Assembly (NCBI GenBank): GCA_030631915.1
Contig: DAOVKF010000001.1
Location: 1-39,878, forward strand
Direction of reading: 5' to 3'
Origin: Candidatus Omnitrophota bacterium
GTDB lineage: Bacteria; Omnitrophota; Gorgyraeia; Tantalellales; Tantalellaceae
Length of the DNA: 39,878 bases
This document shows positions 6,135 through 29,412 of this stretch, in pieces. Each line of letters opens with the position of its first letter. Position 1 is the first letter of the stretch. Both the position numbers and the translations under genes were made by a program. Below the pieces are notes generated by a model. That model was given only the letters and a program-made list of their open reading frames with translations. It did not search any database and was not told where the DNA came from.

Positions 6135-6163
6135 TTGACAAATCGGGCAGGAAGTGATAAACT
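6135..6163 (+). promoter_or_regulatory. sigma-70-type promoter candidate for the gltB leader
   Basis: TTGACA (6135-6140), 17-nt spacer, TAAACT (6158-6163). Confidence 0.5.
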
Positions 6164-6184
6164 TAATAGTGTTAGGCAATGAGG

Positions 6185-6218
6185 CCCCTGGATACTGTGC
6201 AGTTCCAGGGGTTTTTTT
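6185..6218 (+). terminator. intrinsic terminator T1 in the GNAT-gltB spacer
   Basis: CCCCTGGA...TCCAGGGG stem followed by T7. The hairpin GGC-AATGAG-GCC (6175-6186) overlaps its 5' arm. Confidence 0.75.
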
Positions 6219-6247: not shown

Positions 6248-6291
6248 GCTCCAGGGACGGCGCAGGACCGGTAAAGGCAAAGAAGCCCTTT
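6248..6291 (+). promoter_or_regulatory. candidate ANTAR-type dual hexaloop hairpin (P1 6248-6263, P2 6273-6291)
   Basis: P1 is GCTCC-AGGGAC-GGCGC with one internal mismatch. P2 is AAAGGC-AAAGAA-GCC(c)TTT. Both loops have A at position 1 and G at position 4. The P2 3' arm is part of the terminator T2 5' arm. Confidence 0.4.
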
Positions 6292-6330
6292 TGAAGCTAA
6301 GAACAAGCTTTGAAGGGCTTTTTTTGTTTT
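6283..6330 (+). terminator. intrinsic terminator T2 about 50 nt upstream of gltB
   Basis: AAGCCCTTTTGAAGCT / AGCTTTGAAGGGCTT stem with a 7-nt loop, followed by TTTTTTTGTTTTT. The sequence is related to the terminator at 1372-1415. Confidence 0.75.
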
Positions 6331-6379: not shown

Positions 6380-9300
6380 GTGCGCGAAATGAAGAACAAT
6401 GGTTTACCGGAAAAACAGGGCCTTTATGATCCGCGGTTCGAACACGACAGCTGCGGCGTGGGGTTTGTCTGCGATGTAAAGGGTAAAAAATCCAATGAAA
6501 TAATAAGGAAAGCTATAGAGGTCCTTGAAAACCTGAGCCACCGCGGCGCGGTCGGCGCTGATCCAAAGACGGGCGACGGCGCCGGGATACTGTTCCAGAT
6601 ACCGCATGAGTTCTATCTCCGCGTATGCGCTGATACAGGTATTGACCTGCCCCCTTCCGGCAGATATGGCACGGGACTCGTGTTCCTGCCGGCTGATGCC
6701 GGGGAACGCCGGTTCTGTGAAGATACTTTTGGGCGCGTGATCAGAGAAGAGGGACAGTTTTTGCTCGGGTGGCGCGCAGTGCCGGTAGACGATTCGATCA
6801 TAGGTAAAGGCGCAAGAGACACGCAGCCTGTGATAAAACAGATCTTCATCGCCCGGGACAAAGGGATCGACGAGCAGCTTGTTTTCGAACGTAAACTTTA
6901 TGTTATCAGGAAGAGGGTGGAGAATACGGTCCGTTCTTCGAGGATCCGACAGAAGAGTTTTTTCTATATCACCAGTGTTTCGTCAAGGACGGTCAGTTAC
7001 AAGGGGCTGTTAATGCCGGGCCAGGTGAAGCAATATTATCCTGATCTCCGGGACAAGGGGATAAAAAGCGCGCTCGCGATGGTACATTCGCGATACAGCA
7101 CCAATACGTTCCCAACCTGGGACCTGGCCCAGCCGTTCCGATTTCTCGCGCATAACGGGGAGATCAATACTTTAAGGGGGAATATTAACTGGTTCCGCGC
7201 GCGGGAAAGGCTGCTGGAAAGCAGGCTTTTCGGCGATGACATACGGAAGATCAAACCCGTTATCGTCGAAGGTGGCAGCGATTCCGCTATAATCGACAAT
7301 GTTTTCGAGCTTCTGGTCCTCTCGGGCAGATCACTTCCGCACGCGATGATGATGCTTATACCCGGCGCCTGGGAACACGACAGACTCCTGGACGAGGAGG
7401 TCCGGGATTTTTATAAATACCATGCCTGTTTCATGGAACCCTGGGACGGCCCCGCGGCCATAGCTTTCACTGATGGAAGGAGCATAGGGGCTGTGCTGGA
7501 CAGGAACGGCCTTCGTCCTGCGCGTTACATTGTAACCAAAAAGGGCTTTGTCGTAATGGCTTCTGAGGCCGGGGTGCTGAATATCGATCCGTCCGATATC
7601 AGGCTTTCCGGAAGACTGGAGCCGGGCAAAATGTTTTTGATCGATACCGGGACCGGCCGCATTGTCGATGACACCGAGATAAAAAAAGAAGTTTCCACCC
7701 GCCGCCCTTACGGCATGTGGAACAAAGAGAACATGGTTGAACTCGATGGTCTTCCTGACGCGGGGAAAGATTCCCCGGGAATACCGGATATTTTTACTTA
7801 TTTGAAAGCGTTCGGTTATTCCCGTGAGGACCTGAAAATGATCATCGGTCCCATGGCTGAACACGGGACAGAACCGACCGGGTCAATGGGCAATGACATG
7901 CCTCATGCTTTTCTGTCCAAAAAACCCCAGTTGCTTTATAATTATTTCAAGCAGCTGTTCGCGCAGGTCACAAACCCCGCTATTGACCCCATCAGGGAAG
8001 AGATGGTCATGAGTGTTGAAAGTTATGCCGGCGCTCAGAGAAATGTCCTGGATGAAACTCCCCGGCATTCCCGTAAGTTAAAGATAAAGAACCCGATCCT
8101 TTGTGATGAACAGCTTGAAAAGATCCGCGCTATCGATGAAAACGGGTTTAACACAAAGACCATTTCCCTGCTTTTCAGTGTCTCCGACAAGGAGGAGTTC
8201 ATTAAAACACTGGATAGAGTATGTGAAGACTCTGTTTCCGCGATACAGCAGGGATATACTTTTATAATCCTGAGCGACCGCGGCGTAAATGATAAACTCG
8301 CGGCCCTGCCCGTTCTTCTGGCCACAAGCGCGGTGCACCATCATCTTGTGAGGAACGGGATGCGGACGCAGATAGGCATAATGGTTGAAAGCGCGGAACC
8401 CCGAGAAGTACACCATTTCGCTCTTTTATTCGGCTATGGCGCGGACTGCGTGAATCCGTATCTTGCTTATAAAGCGGTCGAGTATCATGTAAAAGAGGGA
8501 CAGGTGCGGCTGGATACTGAAACAGCTCTGAAAAATTACAAAAAAGCCGTGGATAAAGGGATCTTGAAGATACTTTCGAAAATGGGTATATCGACTCTGC
8601 GGAGTTACAGGGGGGCCCAGATATTCGAGGCCCTTGGGCTGAACGAAGACGTTGTTAAAAGGTATTTTACCGGAACGGTATCCAGGATCGGCGGCGCGGG
8701 CCTGGACGTGATCGCAAAAGAGACGGTTTCCAGGCACAAAGAAGCGTATCCTGAGAACAAGAACCGGGAGAAACCCGGTCTGGCCACGGGCGGTATATAC
8801 CAGTGGAAACGGGACGGTGAGTTCCATTTGTGGCGGCCCGAAAGCATTGCCGCGCTCCAGGATTCTGTCAGAAAAGGGGATTACGAACGGTATAAAGAAT
8901 TCGCGCGGCTCATCAACGATCAAACGGGAAACCCCGCGACGTTACGGAGTTTACTTAAATTCAGGAAAACAGACCCCGTGCCGCTTGAAGAGGTCGAACC
9001 GGTCGAGGAGATCGTCAAACGGTTCGCCACCGGCGCCATGAGTTTCGGGTCCATAAGTAAAAGCGCGCATGAATCAATAGCTATCGCGATGAACCGGCTC
9101 GGGGCGAGGTCCAATACAGGTGAAGGCGGCGAGGATCCGGCGCGTTTTGCCGCGCTCCCGAACCATGACTCCGCGCGGAGCGCGGTAAAACAGGTCGCTT
9201 CGGGAAGGTTCGGCGTGACCACGAACTATCTTGTCAACGCCGATGAAATTCAGATAAAGATAGCCCAGGGCGCGAAACCGGGCGAAGGCGGCCAGCTTCC

Positions 9301-10921
9301 CGGCCACAAGGTAAGCGCTATAATCGCGCGCACGCGCTATACGACCCCGGGGGTAACATTGATCTCGCCTCCGCCTCATCATGATATTTATTCGATAGAG
9401 GACCTCGCGCAGCTTATTTTTGACCTGAAAAACGTTAATCCGCGCGCCCGTATAAGCGTTAAACTGGTATCTGAGACAGGCGTGGGGACTGTCGCCGCAG
9501 GAGTCGCCAAGGGACACGCTGACATGATACTTATATCAGGGGGGGACGGAGGGACAGGAGCGTCTCCCAGAAGCTCGATCAGGCACGCGGGGCTTCCATG
9601 GGAGCTGGGCCTTTCAGAAACACATCAGACGCTTGTGTTGAACGATCTTCGGGGCAGGGTGCGCCTGCAGACTGACGGGCAGATGCGCACGGGCAGGGAC
9701 GTGGCCATAGCGGCTTTCCTCGGGGCTGAGGAGTACGGGTTCTCCACTTCTGTCCTGGTCACGCTGGGCTGTGTGATGCTCAGACACTGCCACCTTAACA
9801 ACTGTTCCCTCGGAGTGGCCACACAGGACGAGATGCTCGAGAAAAGATTCCGGGGCAGGCCCGAGTATGTGGTAAATTACATGCGTTTTGTCGCGCGGGA
9901 ATTACGCGGGATCATGGCGGAACTGGGAGTGAGGAGCGTCGATGAGATGATCGGCAGGACAGATCTGCTGGAGGTCAATACGGATCTTGTTCCGGAAAAA
10001 GCGAAAGGGGTTGATTTTGCGCGGATCCTCTATAAACCCGTAGTCCCTGAAAGCACACCCGCGCGCTGTGTCATGTCGCAGGACCACGGTATCGACGACG
10101 TGCTTGACAGAAAGATCATTGAACTTGCCGGAGCGGCGATAGAACAAGCGGAACCCGCGCGGCTCGAGCTTTCCATAAACAATACCAACAGGACCACAGG
10201 CGCGATGTTAAGCGGTGAGGTATGCCGATCGCACGGAGAAGAAGGGCTTCCTGAAGATACCATCCGTTGCAGGTTCACGGGTGTCGCCGGGCAGAGTTTC
10301 GGGGCGTTTCTGGCAAAGGGTATAACCTTTGAACTCGAGGGTATGGCCAATGATTATGTGGGTAAAGGCATGTCCGGCGGCAGGATCGTCATATACCCCG
10401 GCAAGAAAGCCGCTTATAAAGCCGAAGAAAATATTATTATAGGGAATACTGCTTTTTACGGAGCCATATCCGGTGAGGCCTATGTCAGAGGGGTGGCGGG
10501 AGAAAGGTTCTGTATAAGGAATTCCGGGCTCTACGCTGTTGTGGAAGGAGTGGGGGAGCATGGATGCGAATATATGACGGGTGGAAGAGTCGTCGTGCTG
10601 GGCAGGACGGGGAGAAATTTTGCCGCTGGCATGTCCGGCGGTATCGCGTATGTTTACGATGAGGAAGGGATATTTAAGGATAGATGCAATAAGGACATGG
10701 TGCAGATGGAAGAACTTAACGACGACGACAGGACGACGGTCTATGATCTGGTGCATAGCCACCACAAATATACCGGAAGTCCTTGTGCGGAGAAAGTATT
10801 AAGCGCTTTTAACGAAAAAGTGAAAAAATTTATCAAAGTTATGCCCATGGAATACAAGCGTGTTCTGGAAGGTAAGAAGGTAGAAGCCCGCTTAGACCTT
10901 CTGGAGGTGTCTGATGGGTGA
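6380..10921 (+). CDS. gltB: glutamate synthase large subunit
   Basis: About 1510 aa. Has a propeptide then CGVGFV (Ntn Cys), FMN-domain GGDGGTGASP, and a C-terminal GXGXG domain. Start is GTG 6380 or ATG 6389. Confidence 0.95.
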   Translation: MREMKNNGLPEKQGLYDPRFEHDSCGVGFVCDVKGKKSNEIIRKAIEVLENLSHRGAVGADPKTGDGAGILFQIPHEFYLRVCADTGIDLPPSGRYGTGLVFLPADAGERRFCEDTFGRVIREEGQFLLGWRAVPVDDSIIGKGARDTQPVIKQIFIARDKGIDEQLVFERKLYVIRKRVENTVRSSRIRQKSFFYITSVSSRTVSYKGLLMPGQVKQYYPDLRDKGIKSALAMVHSRYSTNTFPTWDLAQPFRFLAHNGEINTLRGNINWFRARERLLESRLFGDDIRKIKPVIVEGGSDSAIIDNVFELLVLSGRSLPHAMMMLIPGAWEHDRLLDEEVRDFYKYHACFMEPWDGPAAIAFTDGRSIGAVLDRNGLRPARYIVTKKGFVVMASEAGVLNIDPSDIRLSGRLEPGKMFLIDTGTGRIVDDTEIKKEVSTRRPYGMWNKENMVELDGLPDAGKDSPGIPDIFTYLKAFGYSREDLKMIIGPMAEHGTEPTGSMGNDMPHAFLSKKPQLLYNYFKQLFAQVTNPAIDPIREEMVMSVESYAGAQRNVLDETPRHSRKLKIKNPILCDEQLEKIRAIDENGFNTKTISLLFSVSDKEEFIKTLDRVCEDSVSAIQQGYTFIILSDRGVNDKLAALPVLLATSAVHHHLVRNGMRTQIGIMVESAEPREVHHFALLFGYGADCVNPYLAYKAVEYHVKEGQVRLDTETALKNYKKAVDKGILKILSKMGISTLRSYRGAQIFEALGLNEDVVKRYFTGTVSRIGGAGLDVIAKETVSRHKEAYPENKNREKPGLATGGIYQWKRDGEFHLWRPESIAALQDSVRKGDYERYKEFARLINDQTGNPATLRSLLKFRKTDPVPLEEVEPVEEIVKRFATGAMSFGSISKSAHESIAIAMNRLGARSNTGEGGEDPARFAALPNHDSARSAVKQVASGRFGVTTNYLVNADEIQIKIAQGAKPGEGGQLPGHKVSAIIARTRYTTPGVTLISPPPHHDIYSIEDLAQLIFDLKNVNPRARISVKLVSETGVGTVAAGVAKGHADMILISGGDGGTGASPRSSIRHAGLPWELGLSETHQTLVLNDLRGRVRLQTDGQMRTGRDVAIAAFLGAEEYGFSTSVLVTLGCVMLRHCHLNNCSLGVATQDEMLEKRFRGRPEYVVNYMRFVARELRGIMAELGVRSVDEMIGRTDLLEVNTDLVPEKAKGVDFARILYKPVVPESTPARCVMSQDHGIDDVLDRKIIELAGAAIEQAEPARLELSINNTNRTTGAMLSGEVCRSHGEEGLPEDTIRCRFTGVAGQSFGAFLAKGITFELEGMANDYVGKGMSGGRIVIYPGKKAAYKAEENIIIGNTAFYGAISGEAYVRGVAGERFCIRNSGLYAVVEGVGEHGCEYMTGGRVVVLGRTGRNFAAGMSGGIAYVYDEEGIFKDRCNKDMVQMEELNDDDRTTVYDLVHSHHKYTGSPCAEKVLSAFNEKVKKFIKVMPMEYKRVLEGKKVEARLDLLEVSDG

Positions 10922-12359
10922 TCCTCAGGGTTTTCAGAAAGTCGGGAGGCAAACGTCGGAAGGCAGACCGGTTCGCGAGCGCCTCAGGGATTACAGAGAG
11001 GTCCCGGTCATGCGTAAAGACGAACAGTCAAAGGAGCAGGCATCGCGCTGTATGGACTGCGGCACGCCTTTCTGCCACTGGGGATGTCCTCTCGGGAATT
11101 ATATCCCCGAATGGAACGATTTCATGTTTGACGGTCACTGGGAAAAGGCTTTTGAATTATTACAGGCAACTAACGATTTTCCGGAGTTTACGGGTAGGGT
11201 ATGTCCGGCAACCTGCGAATACGCGTGCGTGCTGGGCATAAATGACGATCCTGTGACCATACGCGAGAACGAACTCGCCGTAATAGAATACGCGTTCAGG
11301 AACGGGATGATAAAACCCCGGCCGCCCGTAACACGGACCGGGAAAAATGTCGCTGTTATAGGTTCAGGTCCGGCCGGGCTTGCCTGCGCAGCGCAGCTTA
11401 ACAGAGCGGGCCACAACGTTGTCGTATATGAAAAGGACGATAAGATCGGCGGCATTCTCCGTTACGGCATACCGGATTTCAAGCTTGAGAAAGGGGTCAT
11501 TGACAGACGTCTCTCCCTGATGAGGGAAGAAGGGATAAAGTTCGAGGCATCCGTCAACGTGGGCATGGATTACGACGCGCGGACATTACTGAAGGAATAC
11601 GACGCGGTGTGCCTCGCCGGAGGTTCCCGCGTACCGCGCGATCTCACAGTCGAAGGTCGCGGTCTGGAAGGCATATATTTCGCCATGGATTATCTGACGC
11701 AGTCGAACAGAAGAATATCCGGCGGGAGAATACCCGCAGACCGGCTTATAGACGCCGGGGGCAGGAAAGTCGTCGTGATCGGGGGAGGAGATACAGGTTC
11801 TGACTGCGTTGGGACCGCCGGCAGGCAGGGCGCTTTGAGCGTGACGCAGATCGAACTTTTGCCGAAGCCCCCGGAAAGCCGCGCCGAAGATCAACCCTGG
11901 CCGGTATACCCGGTGCTTCTGAAAACCTCGACCAGTCATGAGGAAGGAGGAGACAGGATATGGTCGGTCAGGACAAAGAGATTCGCCGGCGAAAAAGGCC
12001 GTGTTAACAAACTCGGATGTGTACGCGTGGAATTTGTCAGGACAGATGAAAAAGCTCCTCCCGTGATGAAAGATATCCCTGGCAGCGGGTTTGAGATAGA
12101 AGCGGACCTTGTTGTTCTCGCTCTGGGTTTTATCCGTCCCGAACATGGCGGCCTACTCACGGAGCTGGGCGTCGAATTGGATGAACGCGGGAATGTCAGG
12201 ACCGGCGAAGGGCTCATGACCTCTGTCAGCAAAGTCTTTTCCGCCGGAGACATGAGGCGAGGCCAGTCGCTTGTCGTATGGGCGATCTCAGAGGGCCGCA
12301 GGGCCGCGCATTCCATTGACGTTTTTCTGACGGGACAAAGCAACCTTCCTTATATGTAG
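10914..12359 (+). CDS. gltD: glutamate synthase small subunit (NAD(P)H-dependent)
   Basis: 8-nt overlap with gltB. Cys clusters CMDCGTPFCH and CPATCEYAC. Dinucleotide folds VAVIGSGPAGLA and VVVIGGGDTGSD. Confidence 0.95.
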   Translation: MGDPQGFQKVGRQTSEGRPVRERLRDYREVPVMRKDEQSKEQASRCMDCGTPFCHWGCPLGNYIPEWNDFMFDGHWEKAFELLQATNDFPEFTGRVCPATCEYACVLGINDDPVTIRENELAVIEYAFRNGMIKPRPPVTRTGKNVAVIGSGPAGLACAAQLNRAGHNVVVYEKDDKIGGILRYGIPDFKLEKGVIDRRLSLMREEGIKFEASVNVGMDYDARTLLKEYDAVCLAGGSRVPRDLTVEGRGLEGIYFAMDYLTQSNRRISGGRIPADRLIDAGGRKVVVIGGGDTGSDCVGTAGRQGALSVTQIELLPKPPESRAEDQPWPVYPVLLKTSTSHEEGGDRIWSVRTKRFAGEKGRVNKLGCVRVEFVRTDEKAPPVMKDIPGSGFEIEADLVVLALGFIRPEHGGLLTELGVELDERGNVRTGEGLMTSVSKVFSAGDMRRGQSLVVWAISEGRRAAHSIDVFLTGQSNLPYM

Positions 12360-12404: not shown

Positions 12405-12433
12405 TACCGGGCTGACACGCTGTTTGCGTCAGC

Positions 12434-12482
12434 AGGGAACAAAGACGTTCTTTCCTGCGGAGGGAGGAGTGTCTTTTTTTTT
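12434..12482 (+). terminator. leader attenuator: hexaloop hairpin (12434-12453) overlapping an intrinsic terminator (12441-12482)
   Basis: Terminator: 13-bp GACGTTCTTTCCT / AGGGAGGAGTGTC stem (with G-U pairs), GCGG loop, T9. Competing hairpin: AGGGAAC-AAAGAC-GTTCTTT, 7 bp with a hexaloop (A1, G4). Confidence 0.65.
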
Positions 12483-12548
12483 GATCAAAAACTCATGACC
12501 GTCCTTTTAGGCGGTCTCAGAGAATGAGAACCAGGAGCAAAAAAAAAG

Positions 12549-13040
12549 ATGACGACCGCAGACGCGAAAAGAGTCGATACTATACTAAAAGGCAGAGAAG
12601 GCGCTTCCGGCGAATTGATCGAGGCGCTGCAGGATATCCAGGATGCCTTTAAGTACCTTCCGGAAGAGGCGCTGAGAAGTGTGTCGGAAAAGATGGCAGT
12701 GCCCCTTATCGAAGTATTCAGAGTTGCGAATTATTATAAGGCGTTTACGCTTCAGCCGCGCGGCAGGCATCTCCTTACGGTCTGCATGGGGACCGCGTGC
12801 CATGTGAGAGGAGCGCCCAGGTTCCTGGATGAGGTCCTCGGCCAGCTTGACATCAAACCCGGAGAGACTACCGAAGACGGCGACTTTACCGTGGAAACGG
12901 TAAACTGCCTCGGCGCGTGCGCTTTAGGCCCGGTCGTGGTGCTTGACGGAAAATATCATGACCATATGACCGCCGGGAAATTACGCGCTTTGATCCAGGG
13001 GACCCTCTCTAAGAAGGCAAAAAAAACAGGTGATAGATGA
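12549..13040 (+). CDS. NuoE/HoxE-like thioredoxin-fold [2Fe-2S] ferredoxin subunit
   Basis: CMGTACHVRGA ... VNCLGACALGPVVVLDG motif set. Confidence 0.85.
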   Translation: MTTADAKRVDTILKGREGASGELIEALQDIQDAFKYLPEEALRSVSEKMAVPLIEVFRVANYYKAFTLQPRGRHLLTVCMGTACHVRGAPRFLDEVLGQLDIKPGETTEDGDFTVETVNCLGACALGPVVVLDGKYHDHMTAGKLRALIQGTLSKKAKKTGDR

Positions 13041-14890
13041 GAACCATAGCTTGCATGGAAGATCTGGAAAAACTGGCCGAGCAAAAGAGAAAAGAAAACC
13101 GTGGATACAGCAGGACAGTTACTCTCTGCGCAGGCACCGGATGTTGCGCGTCAGGATGCCTTTCAGTGATAAAAGCGTTACGTGAAGAGCTGGAGCGTTT
13201 GAAATTAAAGGAAAAGATCAAGATCAGGGCTACCGGTTGCCACGGTTTCTGCGAACAGGGGCCGCTCATGGTCATAGAACCCGGGAATATTTTTTATTGC
13301 CGGATCAAGCCCGAGGATATCCCTGAGATCGTTGCCGAGACATTGCAGAAGGACCGGCTGATAGAAAGGTTAATGTATACCGACCCTTCTTCGGGCAGAA
13401 AGATCGCCTGTGAGGCGGAGATCCCTTTTTATAAAGCGCAGGACCGGACAGTACTGGGCCAGAATAAACTGGTTGACCCGTGCGCGGTCGGGGATTATAT
13501 AGCGAATGGCGGCTATTCCGCGTTAGTCAAGGTCCTGACATCCATGAAGCCCGAAGAGGTGATAGACGAGATCAAACGGTCCGGGCTCAGGGGCAGGGGC
13601 GGCGGCGGGTTCCCTGCCGGTAGACAATGGGAGTATTGCAGACAGGCCGAGGGTGAACCCAAGTATGTTATCTGCAACGCGGACGAAGGCGACCCCGGCG
13701 CTTACATGGACAGGAGTGTTCTCGAGGGCAACCCTCATGTCGTTATCGAGGGCATGCTTATCGGAGCGTTCGCCATCGGCGCGAAGCATGGTTTTATATA
13801 CGTCAGGAATGAATATCCGCTCGCGGTGGAACATTCAAAGATCGCGGTCGAGCAGGCCGGGAAGCTGGGGCTCCTGGGAACGAATATCCTCGGGACGGAT
13901 TTTTCGTTTGACATAAAAATAGCCAGAGGCGGCGGCGCGTTCGTGTGCGGCGAGTCGACCGCGTTAATGGCCTCTCTGGAAGGCATGGTCGGTGAGCCCA
14001 GGCCAAAGGATATCCATACGACGGACAAAGGGTTTAAGGACCTGCCGACAAATCTGAATAATGTTGAGACCTGGGCCAATGTGCCTTTTATCATCAATAA
14101 GGGGTCTTCCTGGTTCGCCTCAAAAGGCACCTCCGGGAGCAAGGGAACAAAGATCTTTGCCCTGACCGGACAGATAAGAAATACCGGGTTGGTCGAGATC
14201 TCCATGGGGACCACTCTGCGGGAGATCATATATGATATAGGCGGCGGATCCGCTACGGGGAAAAAGATAAAGGCGGTCCAGACAGGCGGGCCGTCCGGGG
14301 GCTGTCTTCCCGAGGAACTCTTTGATCTGCCCGTGGATTTCGAGGCGTTGGCCGAAGCGGGTTCAATGGTGGGTTCAGGCGGGATGGTGGTAATGGACGA
14401 GGATACCTGCATGGTCGATGTCGCCAGGTATTTTCTGGAATTCCTTCTGGACGAATCATGCGGTAAATGTGTTCCGTGCAGGATCGGCCTGAGCCGCATG
14501 CTGGAAATAATAAAAGATATCACGGAAGGCAGGGGAACGGAAGAAAAACTGGAACTCCTGAAAGACACGGCTGAAACCGTATCCGTGGCTTCATTATGCG
14601 CTTTGGGCAAAACAGCCCCTAACCCGGTGCTATCCACGATCAAATATTTCCGGTCCGAATACGAAGCACATATAAAGAAAAAACAATGTCCCGCCGGGGT
14701 GTGCAGGGAATTGATACATTATTCCATTGACCGGGACAAATGCACGGGCTGCGGCGTTTGTTTAACGGCCTGTCCCCATGAGGCCATTACGGGCGAAAAA
14801 GGAAAGGTTCACAGGATCGAGGACGATAAATGCCGGAAATGCGGTATTTGCGGGGAAGCGTGTAAATTCGGCGCGATCAAGCTGTCATAG
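13037..14890 (+). CDS. NuoF/HydB-type NAD(H)- and FMN-binding flavoprotein with N-terminal [2Fe-2S] and C-terminal 2x[4Fe-4S] domains
   Basis: ATGA overlap with the previous gene. GLRGRGGGGFPAG, ICNADEGDPGAYMDR, ESCGKCVPCR, and C-terminal CTGCGVCLTACP / CRKCGICGEAC. Confidence 0.9.
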   Translation: MRTIACMEDLEKLAEQKRKENRGYSRTVTLCAGTGCCASGCLSVIKALREELERLKLKEKIKIRATGCHGFCEQGPLMVIEPGNIFYCRIKPEDIPEIVAETLQKDRLIERLMYTDPSSGRKIACEAEIPFYKAQDRTVLGQNKLVDPCAVGDYIANGGYSALVKVLTSMKPEEVIDEIKRSGLRGRGGGGFPAGRQWEYCRQAEGEPKYVICNADEGDPGAYMDRSVLEGNPHVVIEGMLIGAFAIGAKHGFIYVRNEYPLAVEHSKIAVEQAGKLGLLGTNILGTDFSFDIKIARGGGAFVCGESTALMASLEGMVGEPRPKDIHTTDKGFKDLPTNLNNVETWANVPFIINKGSSWFASKGTSGSKGTKIFALTGQIRNTGLVEISMGTTLREIIYDIGGGSATGKKIKAVQTGGPSGGCLPEELFDLPVDFEALAEAGSMVGSGGMVVMDEDTCMVDVARYFLEFLLDESCGKCVPCRIGLSRMLEIIKDITEGRGTEEKLELLKDTAETVSVASLCALGKTAPNPVLSTIKYFRSEYEAHIKKKQCPAGVCRELIHYSIDRDKCTGCGVCLTACPHEAITGEKGKVHRIEDDKCRKCGICGEACKFGAIKLS

Positions 14891-14898
14891 GAGAATAA

Positions 14899-15612
14899 AT
14901 GAGTGAATATGTAACCCTTACAATTAACGGCGCTAAAGTAAGGGCGCCTCGAGGTACATCAGTATTGGACGCCGCGCTGGATTACGGGATATGCATACCG
15001 CACCTCTGTCACATGCAGGGGGTGATCCCCACGGGTGTCTGCCGTCTGTGTATCGTGGAGGTTATTGAAAAAGGCAGGTCAAAAGTTACTACCTCCTGCA
15101 CTCTTGAAGCGGAGGAAGGGATGGTAATTTTAGCTCATACGGACAAGATCCTTAAGGCGAGGAAGAATATCGCCGAGATGCTGGTAGCCGAAGCGCCTAA
15201 TTCACGCGCCATCCAGGACATTGCTCTCAAGTGCGGCGTTAAAGACGTCCGGTATCCTTTCCGCAATAAGGATTGCGTTTTATGCGGACGATGCGTCAGA
15301 GCCTGCACCGAGATATGGCGGTCCAGGTCCCTGGGTTTTGTGGGGCGCGGAGAACAGCGGCATGTCGCCCTTCCGTTCGACGAACGTCCGGAATTCTGTA
15401 AAAGATGCAATGCCTGTATCGATCTCTGTCCCATGACCATTACTCCGTGTGACGGGCCCATGAAAAAAGGCGAGGAATATTTTTGCGGGAAATGCGAGTC
15501 TCAACTGTCAATGTCGGAAGATTTTGTGGATAGTTGCGTGTGGTGCAGACTGGGAGAAGGGTTTGACGTGACAGGCAGACACGCCGGAAGAAAACAGGAG
15601 GATAAAAGATGA
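14899..15612 (+). CDS. NuoG/HydA N-terminal-like [2Fe-2S] + [4Fe-4S] ferredoxin (no catalytic domain)
   Basis: ITLTINGAKVRAPRGTSVLDAALDYGICIPHLCH, CRLCIVEV, CVLCGRCVRAC, CKRCNACIDLCP. Confidence 0.8.
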   Translation: MSEYVTLTINGAKVRAPRGTSVLDAALDYGICIPHLCHMQGVIPTGVCRLCIVEVIEKGRSKVTTSCTLEAEEGMVILAHTDKILKARKNIAEMLVAEAPNSRAIQDIALKCGVKDVRYPFRNKDCVLCGRCVRACTEIWRSRSLGFVGRGEQRHVALPFDERPEFCKRCNACIDLCPMTITPCDGPMKKGEEYFCGKCESQLSMSEDFVDSCVWCRLGEGFDVTGRHAGRKQEDKR

Positions 15613-17195
15613 ATTTGCAGCAGCCGAATGCTAACGACGTAACACAGACAGCGAACAGGTCCCGGAGCGTTGTTCCCGGGTCGGGATTATGCACGCGGTG
15701 TATTGACGGGTGCCGCGGGAATTGCGAAGTGTTTAAAGCGACCTTCAGGGGCCGCGAAGTGATCTATCCCGGCCCGTTCGGCGAGATCTCGGCCGGCGGA
15801 GACAAAGAATACCCGGTGGATTATTCACATCTTAACATACAGGGATACGCCATGGGCGCCAAAGGGCTTCCCGAAGGCGTGGAGGCCGGCCCGGACACCG
15901 CAACCTTTCCCGCTGTGAACACCGAAACCGGATACGGATGGGATAAAAAGGTAAAGATGAGGGTCCCGGCTTTTACAGGGGCGCTCGGCTCCACGGAAAT
16001 AGCCAGAAAGAACTGGGAGCATTTCGCGATCGGAGCGGCTATTTCCGGCGTTACTCTGGTCTGCGGAGAGAATGTTTGCGGCATTGACCCGGAATTGGAA
16101 CTGGACCCAAAGGGAAAGATCAAAAAAGCCCCTGACATGGACAGAAGGATAGAAACCTATAAGAAATTTCATGAGGGCTACGGAGAGATACTGGTCCAGA
16201 TGAACGTCGAAGACACCCGTTTGGGCGTCGCGGAATATGTAAGAAAGAAACACGACCTGGAGACCATTGAGCTTAAATGGGGACAGGGGGCCAAGTGTAT
16301 CGGAGGAGAGATCAAGGTCAAGAGCCTGGAAAGGGCGCTGGAACTTAAAAAAAGGGGATATATCGTTACTCCTGATCCGACGCTCAAGGCGGTCCAGAAC
16401 GCCTATAAAGCCGGAGCTATCAGGGAATTTGAACGCCATTCCCGCCTTGGATTCGTGACGGAAGAGGCTTTCTTCCAGGAGATCAAGCGTCTCAGGGATC
16501 TGGGGTTTAAGAGGATAACCCTGAAGACCGGCGCGTATCCGATGAGGGAACTTGCCATGGCCGTTAAATATTCGTCAATGGCCGGGATAGATCTTCTCAC
16601 GATAGACGGGGCTCCGGGCGGAACCGGGATGAGTCCGTGGAGGATGATGGAAGAGTGGGGGGTCCCGACGTTCTATCTCCAGTCCATGACTTATGAGATA
16701 TGTGAAAAACTAACGAAGAAAGGGATGCGGGTCCCGGACATCGCGATCGCGGGAGGGTTCTCCACCGAAGACCACATCTTCAAGGTGCTGGCCATGGGAG
16801 CGCCTTACGTGAAGGCGGTCTGCATGGGAAGGGCATATATGATCCCGGGCATGGTCGGCAAGAATATCGGATACTGGATCGATGGCAAGGACCTGCCTTC
16901 AACGGTTTCCCGATACGGCAAGACCCCGGAAGAGATATTTGTATGCTATGACGAGCTTGTCGAGAAATACGGAAACAGGATGAAAGAGATCCCCCTCGGC
17001 GCGATAGGGATCTACAGCTTTGCGCAGAAACTGAAAGTCGGGCTTCAGCAGCTCATGGCCGGGAGCAGGAATTTCAGGCTGGATACCATATCAAGGAAAG
17101 ACCTCATGTCCTTAACGGAAGAAGCCGCGAAAGTATCAGGCATTCCTTACGTGATGGACGCTTACAGGGAAGAGGCGGAAGCGGTACTTGGATAA
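15609..17195 (+). CDS. stand-alone glutamate synthase FMN-domain (GltS synthase-domain) protein with N-terminal Cys cluster
   Basis: ATGA overlap with the ferredoxin gene. CTRCIDGCRGNCEVF cluster. LTIDGAPGGTGMSP parallels ISGGDGGTGASP of gltB in this window. No Ntn glutaminase domain and no GXGXG domain. Confidence 0.85.
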   Translation: MNLQQPNANDVTQTANRSRSVVPGSGLCTRCIDGCRGNCEVFKATFRGREVIYPGPFGEISAGGDKEYPVDYSHLNIQGYAMGAKGLPEGVEAGPDTATFPAVNTETGYGWDKKVKMRVPAFTGALGSTEIARKNWEHFAIGAAISGVTLVCGENVCGIDPELELDPKGKIKKAPDMDRRIETYKKFHEGYGEILVQMNVEDTRLGVAEYVRKKHDLETIELKWGQGAKCIGGEIKVKSLERALELKKRGYIVTPDPTLKAVQNAYKAGAIREFERHSRLGFVTEEAFFQEIKRLRDLGFKRITLKTGAYPMRELAMAVKYSSMAGIDLLTIDGAPGGTGMSPWRMMEEWGVPTFYLQSMTYEICEKLTKKGMRVPDIAIAGGFSTEDHIFKVLAMGAPYVKAVCMGRAYMIPGMVGKNIGYWIDGKDLPSTVSRYGKTPEEIFVCYDELVEKYGNRMKEIPLGAIGIYSFAQKLKVGLQQLMAGSRNFRLDTISRKDLMSLTEEAAKVSGIPYVMDAYREEAEAVLG

Positions 17196-17337: not shown

Positions 17338-17393
17338 AATTACAACATATAAGTTGTAATTTATTTGACAATACGACATATATGTTGTATAAT
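17338..17393 (+). promoter_or_regulatory. cassette promoter with two operator-like palindromes
   Basis: TTGACA (17365-17370), 17-nt spacer, TATAAT (17388-17393). Inverted repeat AATTACAAC-N6-GTTGTAATT at 17338-17361 and ATACGACAT-AT-ATGTTGTAT at 17371-17390. Confidence 0.6.
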
Positions 17394-17402
17394 TGTTCTA
17401 CA

Positions 17403-18122
17403 ATGAAAAAAGAGAAAATTTCAAGGTATCAGGACACGGTGCTCAGGGTTTTGGCGAACAAGATAGATGACTTCTATCTTGCCGGCGGCACCGCACTCTC
17501 TTTGTTTTATTTTCAACACAGATTATCTGTCGATCTGGATTTTTTTACTCCACATTTCTCATATAAGAGAATAGAAGAGATCGTTAGATATCTGGAAGGC
17601 GCTTTAGTGAAAGAAATTAAACTTATTGGACAAACGCTGGAAAAGGATAAGGCGAGGGTGCGGATCTATAATATATATTTCACGAAAAGAGATACCCTGA
17701 AAGTCGATTTTATCGAGGATCTTTTCAAACTCATTAAGCGGCCGAAAATAGTAGATGGCGTAAAAATATTATCTTTAGAGGATATATATCTGAGAAAACT
17801 GTATGCTATCGCCGGCATGATCCCTTTTCAGGACATAACAGGGAAAGAACGGTTTTTAGGCGGCAGGATAGAAGCAAAAGATTTTTATGATGTTTATTTC
17901 CTTTCGAGCACATTTATGTCTCTTTCGAGATTCGCGGAAAAATATACCGATAATACCGTAAAAGAAGGATTGATCAATTGGTTCCGCACTTATGACAGGA
18001 TGACCATGATGGACGATCTTTTAAGCTTGAATATAACTGAAAAAATAGACTATAAAAGCATGGATAAACATTTTAATGAAGAAATAGACAAGATCATCCA
18101 AAGGTATATAGAAAGAATATGA
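17403..18122 (+). CDS. nucleotidyltransferase, AbiEii/AbiGii (DUF1814)-type toxin family
   Basis: GGTALSLFYFQHRLSVDLDFF motif. The ATG at 17403 is about 10 nt after the -10 box, so the mRNA is probably leaderless. The ORF-track start at 17382 lies inside the promoter. Confidence 0.8.
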   Translation: MKKEKISRYQDTVLRVLANKIDDFYLAGGTALSLFYFQHRLSVDLDFFTPHFSYKRIEEIVRYLEGALVKEIKLIGQTLEKDKARVRIYNIYFTKRDTLKVDFIEDLFKLIKRPKIVDGVKILSLEDIYLRKLYAIAGMIPFQDITGKERFLGGRIEAKDFYDVYFLSSTFMSLSRFAEKYTDNTVKEGLINWFRTYDRMTMMDDLLSLNITEKIDYKSMDKHFNEEIDKIIQRYIERI

Positions 18123-18637
18123 AAAAAGACTGGTTATGGGACAGAAAAATAAGTCTTAGCGGGGCAAAAAAGATCCTCAGGGACTTTCAGGATAAAAAGT
18201 TCATTTTACTTGCCTCATTACTTTTGACACGAAAAAATGACCCCGAAGAGGTTTTCAGGGAATATATTGATCCGATCATGTTCTGCAAGAGCTGGCCTAA
18301 AATTAAGAAGAACATGCGTAAAAACAAATGGAGCGATAAACGGATCATTTTCTGGCAGGCCGTGTATGAGAAGCTCATGGAAAAATACCGCGGGGAAGGG
18401 ATCAGATTTAGGGAGAAGAAAGAGATAGCAATAGAGGAGATAAGCAGAAAGACAGGTGATCAAATACGAAGGATCAGAAGAGAGCAGGGGTTGTCCCAGA
18501 AGGAATTAGCGAAAAAAATGGGGGTTTCTCAACAGCAGATTTCCCGCATTGAAAAAGGCAAAGAGAATGTATCCCTGACAACGCTCACCGGTATTATGAA
18601 AGCCTTGAATAAAACAGTGAATATTACTTTTGGGTAG
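18119..18637 (+). CDS. XRE-family HTH protein (putative cognate antitoxin/regulator) with uncharacterised N-terminal domain
   Basis: ATGA overlap with the NTase gene. C-terminal HTH: IRRIRREQGLSQKELAKKMGVSQQQISRIEKGKENVSLTTL. Confidence 0.8.
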   Translation: MKKDWLWDRKISLSGAKKILRDFQDKKFILLASLLLTRKNDPEEVFREYIDPIMFCKSWPKIKKNMRKNKWSDKRIIFWQAVYEKLMEKYRGEGIRFREKKEIAIEEISRKTGDQIRRIRREQGLSQKELAKKMGVSQQQISRIEKGKENVSLTTLTGIMKALNKTVNITFG

Positions 18638-27934: not shown

Positions 27935-29315
27935 AAAAGAAAAGTGCGGTGTCTTCGGCATTTACGGCCATGAACTTGCCGTTGATCTGACGTATCTGGG
28001 GCTGTATTCCCTGCAGCATAGAGGCGAAGAATCATGCGGTATCGCTGTTTTTAACGGAAAGAAGCTGTGCCAGCTGGTCGATATGGGGCTTGTTTCGGAT
28101 GTTCTTAGAAAAAACAGATTAAAAGGGCTGAAAGGCCGGACCGCGATAGGGCATGTCCGGTATTCCACAACCGGTTCCAGCATATTGAGGAACGCGCAGC
28201 CTTTTGTCATAAGTCATAACAGGATATCCTTTTCCATAGCCCATAACGGCAACCTGACGAACGCCGTAAAGCTCAGGAGAGAGCTTGAACAGGACGGCGC
28301 CATTTTCCAGACGACAATGGACTCCGAGATGGTCATGCATCTCTTGGTCCGGTCAAAGAAAGAACTTTTCGAGGAAAGGCTCATAGACGCGTTGAGACAA
28401 TGCGAAGGCGCTTTCACCATGCTTTGCCTGACCGGGGACAGTCTCATAGGGGTCAGGGACCCCCATGGTTTCCGCCCTTTATGCCTGGGGAAAAAGGACG
28501 GAGCTTATGTTCTCGCGAGCGAGACCTGTTCCCTTGACCTTATCGACGCCGAATTTATCCGGGAGATAGAACCCGGAGAGGTTATCATTATTTCCGAACA
28601 GGGGATCGAATCGAAAAAGCCTTTTGACCGAAGGACCGTGTCGCCGTGTATTTTCGAATTTATCTATTTCGCGCGTCCTGACAGCCGCATCTTCGGGGAC
28701 AGTGTCTACCGGGTGCGTAAAAACCTGGGCAGGAAACTCGCCCGGGAGCATCCCGCTGAGGCGGACATGGTCATGTCGATACCGGATTCAGGAAATTACG
28801 CTGCCCTGGGATATTCGGAAGAAAGCGGTATACCGTTCGAATTCGGGATGGTAAGGAACCATTATGTGGGCAGGACGTTTATCCAGCCGTCGCAGGAGAT
28901 GCGGAAACACGGGGTGAAGATCAAGCTCAACCCGATCAAAGATGTCCTGAAAGGGAAACGGGTCATAGTCGTGGAAGACTCGATCGTCAGGGGCACGACT
29001 ACGGGCGGCAGAATAAAAGCTCTCAGGGAGGCGGGCGTCAAAGAGATCCACATGCGGATAAGCTGCCCCCCGATCAGGTTCCCGTGTTTTTACGGGATAG
29101 ATTTTCCGAGCAGGAAGGAGCTGATAGCCAACCAGCTTCCATCCATAGAAGAAATAGCGAAGTTCATCGGCGTGGACAGCTTGAAATATCTCAGTCTCGA
29201 GGGGATGCTGGAAACCGTGAGGAACAAAGAGAACGGGTTTTGCGCCGCCTGTTTCAGCGGGGACTATCCTACGAAAGTAGGCAGGAAAGCGGTCAAGACG
29301 CCTTTTGAGCGTTGA
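27912..29315 (+). CDS. purF: amidophosphoribosyltransferase (canonical, with propeptide and Fe-S Cys ligands)
   Basis: [19 protein letters not shown] (11-residue propeptide before the Cys). [39 protein letters not shown]. Overlaps the carB end by 23 nt. Confidence 0.93.
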
Positions 29316-29329
29316 TAAACGGATAATTG

Positions 29330-29386
29330 TCCGTCATCGTGAGGAGGGCCGACCCGATCCGTCATTGCGAGGGAGACAAAGCGATC
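29330..29386 (+). repeat. two tandem about 28-nt units of a TCCGTCAT...GAT(C) short repeat in the purF-pyrG spacer
   Basis: TCCGTCATCGTGAGGAGGGCCGACCCGA followed by TCCGTCATTGCGAGGGAGACAAAGCGATC. Confidence 0.45.
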
Positions 29387-29412
29387 TTTATAAGAACGAT
29401 AAAAGGAGCAGT

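Follow-up and report, generated by a model that had tools for sequence, protein, structure and literature searches.

Which reaction would be catalyzed by an enzyme that combines the electron-input subunits of a HydABC-type (Bfu family) flavin-based bifurcating enzyme with a stand-alone relative of the flavin mononucleotide (FMN) domain of glutamate synthase (GltS)? The question is raised by a four-gene operon in a 39,878-nt stretch of DNA from a “Candidatus Omnitrophota” bacterium (forward strand of contig DAOVKF010000001.1, assembly GCA_030631915.1; hereafter, the window). The first three genes encode the subunits BfuC, BfuB, and BfuA, and the fourth encodes a 528-aa GltS-like Fe-S flavoprotein. 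Here, we describe how this operon is built, which families and motifs for cofactor binding its proteins contain, how its genes recur together elsewhere, and in what nitrogen-related context they lie; from these, we predict complex formation, substrate, and coupling mode. The reading that we prefer, and to which we assign about an even chance, is that the four genes encode a single type-2 BfuABC enzyme in which the GltS-like flavoprotein is the module for the third substrate and converts 2-oxoglutarate and NH3 to glutamate.

The four open reading frames (ORFs) occupy positions 12549-17195 of the + strand (Table 1) and, as a previous sequence-only reading had it, are coupled by ATGA start/stop overlaps at 13037 and 15609, both of which can be read directly in the sequence. 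The gap that separates the BfuB gene from that of BfuA is 8 nt, with an AGGAG Shine-Dalgarno sequence ahead of 14899, and GGAGG precedes 15609, the start of the 528-aa gene. The same four-gene unit is found on many independent contigs from several phyla, so that its arrangement is not a chance juxtaposition. The operon has a sigma-70-like promoter of its own, identified as a consensus match only, and a probable terminator hairpin, which scores under the threshold of the terminator scan and has only 4 T residues after the stem. The operon is also, as previously stated, distinct from the canonical gltBD genes that adjoin it upstream and are recognized by Pfam and NCBIfam. A role of the Bfu subunits in serving the adjacent GltB was considered and rejected, as GltD is present and a promoter and a terminator separate the two operons.

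Table 1. Features of the four-gene operon and of the associated genes and signals in the window
Feature	Position	Strand	Basis
BfuC, NuoE/HoxE-like [2Fe-2S] subunit, 163 aa	12549-13040	+	PF01257; Cys 79, 84, 120, 124
BfuB, HydB-type NuoF, 617 aa	13037-14890	+	Pfam and PDB sequence matches
BfuA, short type-2 form, 237 aa	14899-15612	+	Fer2_4 and Fer4_Nqo3
GltS-like Fe-S flavoprotein, 528 aa	15609-17195	+	PF01645, AF2 model, Foldseek
Sigma-70-like promoter TTGACT-17-GATAAT, directly 3' of the gltD stop codon	12376-12404	+	Consensus scan, 10/12 matches
Leader attenuator: 16-bp terminator hairpin (12441-12476), then U9 run	12437-12485	+	RNA fold, terminator scan
Probable operon terminator: hairpin ACAGGG-GAACA-CCCTGT, then TTTT, abutting the last stop codon	17196-17216	+	Sequence reading
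Canonical gltB, 1513 aa, all four GltS domains, directly upstream of the operon	6380-10921		Pfam/NCBIfam
Canonical gltD, directly upstream of the operon	10914-12359		Pfam/NCBIfam
GAF-ANTAR regulator, 239 aa	545-1264	+	Pfam GAF_2 and ANTAR

BfuC is a member of the 2Fe-2S_thioredx family (PF01257, E = 9e-45) that is matched by the NCBIfam HoxE/NuoE models only under their cut-offs; its four cysteines listed in Table 1 are those of the C1 [2Fe-2S] cluster of the Bfu family. In BfuB, Pfam recognizes the 2Fe-2S_thioredx (residues 27-101), Complex1_51K (E = 6e-40), SLBB, and NADH_4Fe-4S (E = 6e-33) domains and two Fer4 domains at 563-615. The protein thus has the FMN/NADH domain and the B1 [4Fe-4S] cluster (Cys 475, 478, 481, and 521), as well as the additional B5 N-terminal [2Fe-2S] cluster (Cys 31, 36/37, 68, and 72) and the B3 and B4 clusters of the 2x[4Fe-4S] type (Cys 569-609). 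Clusters B2 to B5 are lacking in non-bifurcating homologues of BfuB, which also lack the His residue of the B2 site that is conserved in BfuB (Schut et al., PMC9304861). In Acetomicrobium mobile, this site consists of C438/C476/H525/C531/C536, with the C476 position occupied by Thr in two thirds of BfuBs (PMC9304861). The window BfuB displays the signature C458/T496/H545/C551/C556 with identical spacing (87, 49, 6, 5), an assignment made from residue spacing and without aligning the A. mobile sequence. The top PDB sequence matches of BfuB are the B subunits of bifurcating enzymes, led by NiFe-HydABCSL (7t2r_B, E = 2e-233) and including HydB (7q4v, 8a6t, and 7p5h), WorB (9mqx_B), and NfnB (9n5u_B), whereas Complex I NuoF and the formate dehydrogenase beta subunit are far weaker matches (E = 1e-113 or weaker).

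BfuA consists of the Fer2_4 and Fer4_Nqo3 domains, similar to the N terminus of NuoG and to HoxU, and carries the A1 [2Fe-2S] (C37, 48, 51, and 67) and the A2 and A4 [4Fe-4S] clusters (C126/129/132/136 and C167/170/173/177). The His-ligated A3 cluster (HxxxCxxC), A5, and a catalytic domain were looked for in its sequence and are absent. The C-terminal part contains a four-Cys module (C196, 199, 213, and 216, plus C184) followed by a short conserved tail; all of these cysteines, including those of the C-x2-C...C-x2-C module, are invariant across 11 orthologues (the window BfuA and ten others). Its best PDB match is the 247-aa WorA (9mqx_A, E = 1e-31), in which a zinc finger with four Cys residues and an adaptor helix at the C terminus recruit the catalytic module (PMC12318220). 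A BfuA with A1, A2, and A4 and without A3 or A5 is typical of the type-2 Bfu enzymes, in which an additional catalytic subunit feeds electrons through A4 (PMC9304861). The window BfuA has this type-2 composition, and the fourth gene is the sole candidate for a catalytic subunit at the locus.

Since every defining feature of the Bfu family that can be tested in a sequence is present, we count the core as a member of this family: the first three genes make up a complete HydABC/Bfu-type core, with a predicted bifurcating or confurcating activity. The earlier view of these genes as a HydABC-type electron-input core, with extra N-terminal [2Fe-2S] and C-terminal 2x[4Fe-4S] domains on the NuoF homologue, is borne out by the full set of BfuB domains, the B2 signature, and the bifurcating relatives in the PDB. 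The accompanying statement that the 528-aa gene sits where a hydrogenase or formate dehydrogenase module would normally be found was imprecise, as BfuA is the short type-2 form, like WorA, onto which a separate catalytic subunit docks.

The 528-aa protein has a single Pfam match, to Glu_synthase (PF01645; residues 284-412, E = 9e-15, 55 bits against a cut-off of 20.4), and no match to any NCBIfam model. Its N-terminal region contains the motif C28-x2-C31-x3-C35-x3-C39, which comprises the only Cys residues conserved throughout the family and is taken to bind a cluster that feeds the FMN. The loop GAPGGTGMSP at 334-343 corresponds to GGDGGTGASP in the window GltB. The motifs KWGQGAKxIGGE (223-234), FERHSR (274-279), and DGxxGGTGMSP (333-343) are invariant across subfamilies that are just ~46% identical; the GltS-type motifs GGTG(A/M)SP and QGAK are among the invariant features of the family. 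In the first half of the barrel, a local aligner finds the segments TGA...E137...GE and I-x-x-K-x-x-QGAK229 to be collinear with GltS, though with weak significance. A structural model obtained with AlphaFold2 (AF2) from a multiple-sequence alignment (MSA) of two subfamilies (pLDDT 82.8, pTM 0.87) shows an FMN TIM barrel at ~105-480 and, ahead of it, an N-terminal region that is rich in Cys and less ordered; it replaced an earlier model from a shallow MSA of 82-91% identity (pLDDT 66), in which the N terminus was unmodelled. In Foldseek searches with this model, ferredoxin-dependent GltS (Fd-GltS) comes first (1ofd_A, E = 7.7e-10), followed by 1llw and 1ofe and, with slightly lower scores, 7mfm and 1ea0.

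In our view, the 528-aa protein belongs to PF01645 as a divergent member. Searches with sequence profiles and structures, proposed as a check on the sequence-only reading, recovered the Bfu core and the GltS-type FMN barrel for the respective subunits. They support its claim of homology to the FMN domain of GltS only, in the sense that PF01645 is the sole family match and the similarity is remote (16-18% identity to 1OFD); the cluster motif and the loop that it had pointed out, with its counterpart in GltB, are both present. We looked for a family with an established function other than that of GltS with which the protein would cluster and found none. Among the families compared was that of alpha-hydroxy-acid oxidases (FMN_dh, PF01070), which we rejected because the protein has no catalytic His-x-x-Arg and no FMN_dh match and its DGAPGGTGMSP loop is of the GltS type; the relatives P0270 and P0140 give weak C-terminal FMN_dh matches only.

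Several hallmarks of GltS are missing. The class-II glutaminase domain (GATase_2), which the window GltB matches with E = 4.5e-181, is absent from the 528-aa protein and from the operon, and Pfam detects neither the GltS central domain nor the GXGXG beta-helix domain in this protein. It also lacks the [3Fe-4S] motif C-x5-C-x4-C, for which the window GltB has CVMLRHCHLNNC at 1131; the only Cys residue in this region, C405, is not conserved in the wider family. The 528-aa protein is therefore not a glutamate synthase in the strict sense.

It is also no oddity of the window operon and belongs to a large, extremely conserved, and mostly stand-alone family. Each of three sequence searches returned at least 7,800-8,000 clusters at 90% identity, annotated just as “FMN-binding glutamate synthase family protein.” Proteins with 75-91% identity to the window protein come from Omnitrophota, Thermodesulfobacteriota, Syntrophorhabdaceae, Dehalococcoidia, Armatimonadota, a Slackia metagenome-assembled genome (MAG), Methanothrix/Methanosarcinales, and Altiarchaeales (taxonomic labels of MAGs are given as deposited). 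A second subfamily, ~46-47% identical, is found in Archaeoglobus, Methanocaldococcus, ANME-1, Hadarchaeales, and Methanomethylicia, and a third, with a similar identity of ~46-47%, in Planctomycetota, Aminicenantes, Acidobacteriota, Bacteroidota, KSB1, and DPANN archaea. Conservation of the GltS-like protein exceeds that of GltB (60-72%), GltD, and the Bfu subunits encoded at the same loci. Between bacteria and archaea (MAGs of Methanosarcinales, Methanothrix, and Altiarchaeales at the loci L020, L060, and L079, in which contamination is possible), it is 75-83% identical, which points to a very strong constraint and, probably, to inter-domain transfer of the gene.

A role in glutamate formation is supported mainly by the neighboring genes, which over ~170 GltS-like loci belong overwhelmingly to nitrogen assimilation. 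In a census of 81 non-redundant genome loci, with counts from our own ORF calling and clustering, the most common neighbor is a GAF-ANTAR regulator of 239 aa, encoded directly upstream on the same strand with a median gap of 88 nt (33 loci). It is followed by GltD or GltD-like proteins (20 loci), the ammonium transporter AmtB (16), PII (15), GltB (14), glutamine synthetase (GS; 13), CarB (13), glutamate dehydrogenase (GDH; 12), PyrG (11), CarA (10), and NrpR (7), with glutamine amidotransferases among the further neighbors. In Archaeoglobus profundus, the gene order is isocitrate dehydrogenase (ICDH), an F420_oxidored-family gene, the GltS-like gene, and glutamine synthetase, and two Bacteroidota-type loci, L173 and L175, have an NtrC-type sigma-54 activator ahead of the operon. 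This context fits a glutamate-forming reductase.

A second gene pair recurs in these neighborhoods. A PyrK-like (FAD/[2Fe-2S]) protein and a 30%-identical GltD-like protein, together resembling NfnAB/SudAB, are encoded ahead of gdh and the GltS-like gene in ~9 loci; in L014, L016, L048, L052, L053, and L058, the pair lies 3-5 kb upstream of the GltS-like gene, often behind the shared leader motif described below. It may supply NADPH to GDH or may be another electron-input module. The presence of carAB, pyrG, and PyrK-like genes also raised the possibility of a new dihydroorotate dehydrogenase, which was rejected: the motifs of the flavoprotein are of the GltS type, the regulators are those of nitrogen metabolism, and the pair of PyrK-like and GltD-like proteins resembles NfnAB beside gdh.

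The abundance of glutamine amidotransferase genes in the window and in related loci, with purF-like genes adjoining the operon in the window and in L006, could also suggest a conventional glutamine-dependent glutamate synthase (GOGAT) in pieces, in which a 528-aa synthase subunit works with a separately encoded class-II glutaminase. Such an arrangement would parallel the predicted F420-dependent FGltS, whose FrhB-linked enzyme is written as glutamine dependent in PMC3448663. Yet proteins with the GATase_2, Glu_syn_central, or GXGXG domains are not conserved neighbors in the 81-locus census, none was seen in 12 contexts of the two other subfamilies, and the four-gene operon is a closed unit. 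Archaeal glutamate synthases are indeed split into separate domain proteins; all the same, we consider this explanation highly improbable for the window operon. The purF-like genes were examined as sources of a trans-acting glutaminase and dismissed, as they have full PurF features and are found in only 4 loci.

How firmly, then, is the Bfu trio tied to the GltS-like gene? It adjoins this gene in 13 of the 81 genome loci, mostly in Omnitrophota and in the window order. The order is permuted to GltS-like-BfuCBA in L069, L115, and L116, divergent in L075, and interrupted by NrpR in L068. In the third subfamily, NuoE-like, NuoF-like, and short BfuA genes precede the GltS-like gene in 4 of 5 sampled loci (Aminicenantes, Bacteroidota, and others), and one Aminicenantes operon (163, 617, 228, and 526 aa) has gene sizes near-identical to those in the window. 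Seen from the other side, a GltS-like gene lies directly downstream in 26 of the 30 eligible metagenome loci that encode a BfuA of at least 70% identity; at 60-69% identity, it is linked in just 9 of 34. The Bfu link is facultative but recurrent.

Two arrangements among these linked loci stand out. On an Altiarchaeales contig (L060:4428-11590), the genes for BfuC, BfuB, and BfuA are followed by those for a ferredoxin of 134 aa with 2x[4Fe-4S], a divergent paralogue of the GltS-like protein (526 aa), and another copy of 529 aa that is 79% identical to the window protein, i.e., a tandem duplication with an extra electron-transfer subunit. In the Bacteroidota-type loci L173 (1151-7590) and L175 (1157-7590), two of the four linked loci of the third subfamily, NuoF is fused to a GltD-like domain (Fer4_20 and Pyr_redox_2; 1049-1060 aa), which replaces its C-terminal ferredoxin domain, and short BfuA and GltS-like genes follow downstream. 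This combination of a NuoF-GltD fusion, BfuA, and the GltS-like protein is a further undescribed architecture that joins GltS-beta-like and GltS-alpha-like parts.

Other members of the family have different partners. In ANME-1 (L167 and L168), an FrhB-like gene ends 1 nt before the GltS-like gene, and in P0270 the GltS-like protein is fused to a ferredoxin-FrhB unit; no FrhB gene is found in the window. As the GltS-like family mostly stands alone and some of its members use FrhB or NuoF-GltD fusions, BfuABC is one of several exchangeable electron-input modules for the catalytic subunit.

In the proposed enzyme, NADH would bind at the FMN of BfuB and ferredoxin at its C-terminal 2x[4Fe-4S] domain. 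Electrons would pass through clusters A1, A2, and A4 of BfuA to a [4Fe-4S] cluster in the N-terminal CxxCxxxCxxxC motif of the 528-aa subunit and on to its FMN, and this subunit would dock through the C-terminal Cys4 module and tail of BfuA, by analogy with WorS on WorA. 2-Oxoglutarate and free NH3 would give 2-iminoglutarate, which the FMN would then reduce to L-glutamate with no glutaminase involved.

Two modes of coupling are feasible on thermodynamic grounds. In confurcation, NADH and reduced ferredoxin would be co-donors, and the reaction would be strongly exergonic and permit assimilation at very low NH4+ without ATP. In bifurcation, two NADH would reduce ferredoxin and iminoglutarate. 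The 2-oxoglutarate,NH4+/glutamate couple has an E0' of ~ -0.14 V; with a mean acceptor potential of ~ -320 mV, the bifurcation option would be roughly balanced. We tentatively favor confurcation, since electrons of mid potential pass through the A-branch in known Bfu enzymes and since a co-donor role of NADH and ferredoxin has been proposed for Por-Bfu, F420-Bfu, and a Bfu type that detoxifies H2O2 (Schut et al., PMC9304861). A bolder version, which we think unlikely, is that the family gives strict anaerobes a third way to assimilate ammonium, one that needs neither ATP nor glutamine and relies on an iminoglutarate reductase served by plug-in electron modules (ferredoxin, FrhB/F420H2, or BfuABC), and that its Bfu-linked form is truly bifurcating: 2 NADH + Fd(ox) + 2-oxoglutarate + NH4+ -> 2 NAD+ + Fd(red) + glutamate. 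If so, the ~35 kJ/mol of NADH-dependent reductive amination would drive the reduction of ferredoxin, and this would be the first Bfu enzyme with NADH as the bifurcated donor and a biosynthetic exergonic branch.

Several observations, concerning the substrate, the link between the subunits, and the energetics, weigh against the proposed enzyme. The PF01645 match spans just 123 of the 369 profile positions in the window protein (positions 60-309 in its relative P0121), sequence identity to 1OFD is as low as stated above, and PDB sequence searches with the single 528-aa sequence and with the family profile return nothing relevant. An hhalign comparison of the family with GltB FMN domains yields a probability of 76% and aligns the C-terminal half alone. 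In the Foldseek search, lactate monooxygenase, IDI-2, and IMPDH are within two orders of magnitude of GltS, and glycolate oxidase is also close; with GltS on top and generic FMN barrels close behind, the protein is nearest to GltS yet remote from it. The GltS site for 2-oxoglutarate and 2-iminoglutarate is made up of what we take to be Glu903, Gln969, Lys972, and Arg992. E137, Q226, and K229 can be equated with the first three of these residues at z scores of 1.7-2.7, with 12-32 of 500 shuffles giving an equal or better result; a counterpart of the 2-oxoglutarate-binding Arg992 could not be assigned by local alignment, and hhalign misses that half of the protein. GDH, GS, and GltBD are already encoded nearby in the hosts, which makes a fourth route to glutamate look redundant.

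Several of these findings would fit the same complex, or obligatory pair, of BfuABC and the 528-aa subunit if its FMN reduced or oxidized another intermediate of nitrogen metabolism, which might be a different 2-oxo acid, an imino acid, or, by analogy with N-methylglutamate synthase, an N-alkyl glutamate. PF01645 covers non-GOGAT enzymes, N-methylglutamate synthase being an example, and the invariant FERHSR motif is the family's own, absent from GltS. Still, the genomic context is specifically that of ammonium, glutamate, and glutamine, with GS, GDH, GltBD, AmtB, PII, NrpR, and, in A. profundus, ICDH. The QGAK and GGTGxSP motifs and the Glu residue of the GltS synthase site appear to be kept, and no conserved neighbor indicates another pathway. 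On balance, a substrate other than 2-oxoglutarate and ammonia seems to us a lesser, though by no means negligible, possibility.

As to the link, the Bfu genes are present in just 10 of the 57 loci whose upstream sequence extends over 3.5 kb or more and most GltS-like copies are lone, so that the 528-aa protein does not depend on Bfu; no sequence feature was found that separates the Bfu-linked copies from the lone ones. The trio and the GltS-like gene might then be co-regulated but functionally separate, with the flavoprotein using free ferredoxin or flavodoxin (a flavodoxin gene lies near a lone copy in L001) and Bfu acting as a redox balancer with a partner encoded elsewhere. Many BfuCBA trios with a BfuA of 57-69% identity are such “orphans,” followed by unrelated genes (histidine kinases, HD-GYP, and radical SAM proteins) with no alternative redox partner seen among them, and in a nitrogen island as dense as that of the window, adjacency alone is weak evidence. 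However, the type-2 BfuA core has no third-substrate site of its own, no other candidate partner is seen in any Bfu locus, and the BfuA and GltS-like genes share an ATGA overlap. Moreover, the linkage persists through permutations of gene order, through three protein subfamilies, and in at least 6 phyla, including an archaeon, and holds in nearly all of the loci with close BfuA relatives. We therefore judge separate functions to be quite improbable. With regard to the energetics of the preferred BfuABC-GltS-like enzyme, its third substrate would have a potential more positive than that of NAD, which, to our knowledge, is not the case for any characterized Bfu third substrate.

Expression signals bear on the unity of the operon as well. 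Between the promoter and the BfuC gene, the leader contains an attenuator whose 5' arm carries the conserved motif GAACAAAGACGTTC (12437-12450) and which is preceded by a smaller hairpin at ~12411-12433; the folding energy of the leader RNA is -32.1 kcal/mol (z = -3.25). The motif GRACAAAGRCGUYC, its complementary arm, and a U-run are found 100-140 nt upstream of lone GltS-like genes and, in Bfu-linked loci, upstream of BfuC, usually at the head of the whole four-gene unit, which adds to the evidence for joint expression of the four genes. In Omnitrophota-type loci, this leader motif also precedes GAF-ANTAR genes, PyrK-like/GltD-like/gdh operons, gdh, and carA/B. Among 40 intergenic matches with a gene less than 450 nt downstream, that gene is GltS-like in 14 cases, GAF-ANTAR in 6, PyrK-like in 6, and BfuC in 4. 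Examples of such sites are L042:9865, L043:9896, L059:9860, L064:9861, L078:9833, L007:6900, L089:3461, and L092:3598, and more than one site is present in L001 (8161, 9812, 9917, and 15197) and L009 (5683 and 10582). An Rfam scan of the window found only a tRNA and no riboswitch or known leader at the gathering score, leaving the motif unmatched.

The GAF-ANTAR protein is probably the trans-acting antiterminator of this leader, which would make the leader element a nitrogen-regulon attenuator: the operon would belong to a nitrogen-limitation regulon, with its own promoter and a leader terminator opened by the GAF-ANTAR protein. The gltBD genes have a leader too, with a promoter-like TTGACA-17-TAAACT (6135-6163) and two terminator-like hairpins with T-runs (~6180-6215 and ~6287-6317) ahead of gltB, which starts at 6380. 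These signals point to attenuation at gltBD as well, though without the GRACAAAGRCGUYC motif.

The window as a whole (39-39609) is a “glutamine island.” Besides gltBD and the Bfu operon, it contains a partial glnA, the GAF-ANTAR gene, amtB, two PII genes, a GNAT gene, two purF-like genes, carA, two copies of carB in opposite orientation, pyrG, guaA, purSL, purQ, and glmS, so that nearly all glutamine-dependent amidotransferases of central metabolism are clustered here with the genes of ammonium assimilation. The longest ORFs of pyrG (29305-31026, TTG start) and guaA (30699-32579) overlap by 328 nt; as the Pfam GATase domain of GuaA begins at residue 120, the true guaA start is probably further downstream. 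Directly after the Bfu operon, genes for a nucleotidyltransferase toxin of the AbiEii family (17382-18122) and for an HTH_3 protein (18119-18637), with a lower G+C content of 0.47, lie behind a perfect consensus promoter, TTGACA-17-TATAAT (17365-17393). This pair is absent from related loci and looks like a mobile toxin-antitoxin insertion into the nitrogen island.

The operon can be compared with several known systems. WorABCSL of A. mobile (9MQX, PMC12318220) has the same BfuC/BfuB/short-BfuA core, with A1, A2, and A4 followed by a four-Cys module and tail in BfuA, and likewise has a separate catalytic protein that plugs in through an Fe-S cluster, the window complex being predicted from its genes. 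The WorABCSL module consists of a tungstopterin aldehyde oxidoreductase and a polyferredoxin, whereas that of the window is a single FMN/Fe-S GltS-like subunit, with a probable third substrate that, unlike that of WorABCSL, has a higher potential than NAD. NfnABC/StnABC (9N5U, PMC11829005, PMC10482914) similarly combines a Bfu core with a domain derived from glutamate synthase, and its 9n5u_B is a strong match of the window BfuB. There, however, the homologue is that of GltD (the beta subunit), is fused to BfuA, and acts on NADP+, whereas in the window a homologue of the alpha-subunit FMN domain is a separate subunit.

With GltBD and Fd-GltS (1EA0, 1OFD), the operon shares the PF01645 FMN TIM barrel with its GGTGxSP and QGAK motifs, an Fe-S cluster predicted to feed the FMN, and the nitrogen context. 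Electrons would likewise come from a pyridine-nucleotide module or from ferredoxin, and some relatives of the window operon even have a GltD-like domain fused to NuoF. In contrast to these enzymes, the 528-aa protein has neither the CX5CX4C motif nor any of the glutaminase, central, and GXGXG domains, its cluster site is the N-terminal CxxCxxxCxxxC, and the donor would be a three-subunit Bfu core instead of GltD. For pairs of FrhB and “glutamate synthase,” a role as F420H2-dependent glutamate synthases, FGltS(I), was predicted in 2012; none has been purified or characterized (PMC3448663, PMC9012536). Like the archaeal family members L167, L168, and P0270, they comprise a stand-alone synthase subunit with a dedicated input protein, which is FrhB (F420H2) in FGltS(I) versus BfuABC (NADH/ferredoxin) in the window; the published FGltS(I)-beta ORFs may be members of the 528-aa family.

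The catalogue of Bfu enzymes lists 57 BfuB clades, 18 of which were left uncharacterized (Schut et al. 2022, PMC9304861). The main text of that paper mentions neither glutamate nor GltB, one of its supplementary files contains none of the terms glutamate, GltB, PF01645, and Omnitrophica, and full-text searches of the literature yielded no description of a combination of Bfu/HydABC with glutamate synthase, an absence that is not proof. Judged by its domain composition, the window operon can be described as a type-2 Bfu enzyme with a new catalytic module or, equally, as a new electron-donor version of the predicted stand-alone GltS-like enzyme.

An enzyme of the proposed kind would add a functional class to the Bfu family and tie bifurcation or confurcation directly to nitrogen assimilation. 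Its catalytic subunit belongs to an abundant, unusually conserved, nitrogen-regulated, and uncharacterized family. The four-gene system is compact, and the lone or FrhB-linked form of its catalytic subunit is present in cultured archaea, which makes the hypothesis directly testable. If the family makes glutamate from free ammonium with low-potential electrons, it would provide energy-limited anaerobes with a high-driving-force alternative to the ATP-consuming GS/GOGAT pathway, and the metabolic reconstructions of Omnitrophota, Dehalococcoidia, Thermodesulfobacteriota, Aminicenantes, Bacteroidota, ANME-1, Archaeoglobus, Methanocaldococcus, and others would need to be revised.

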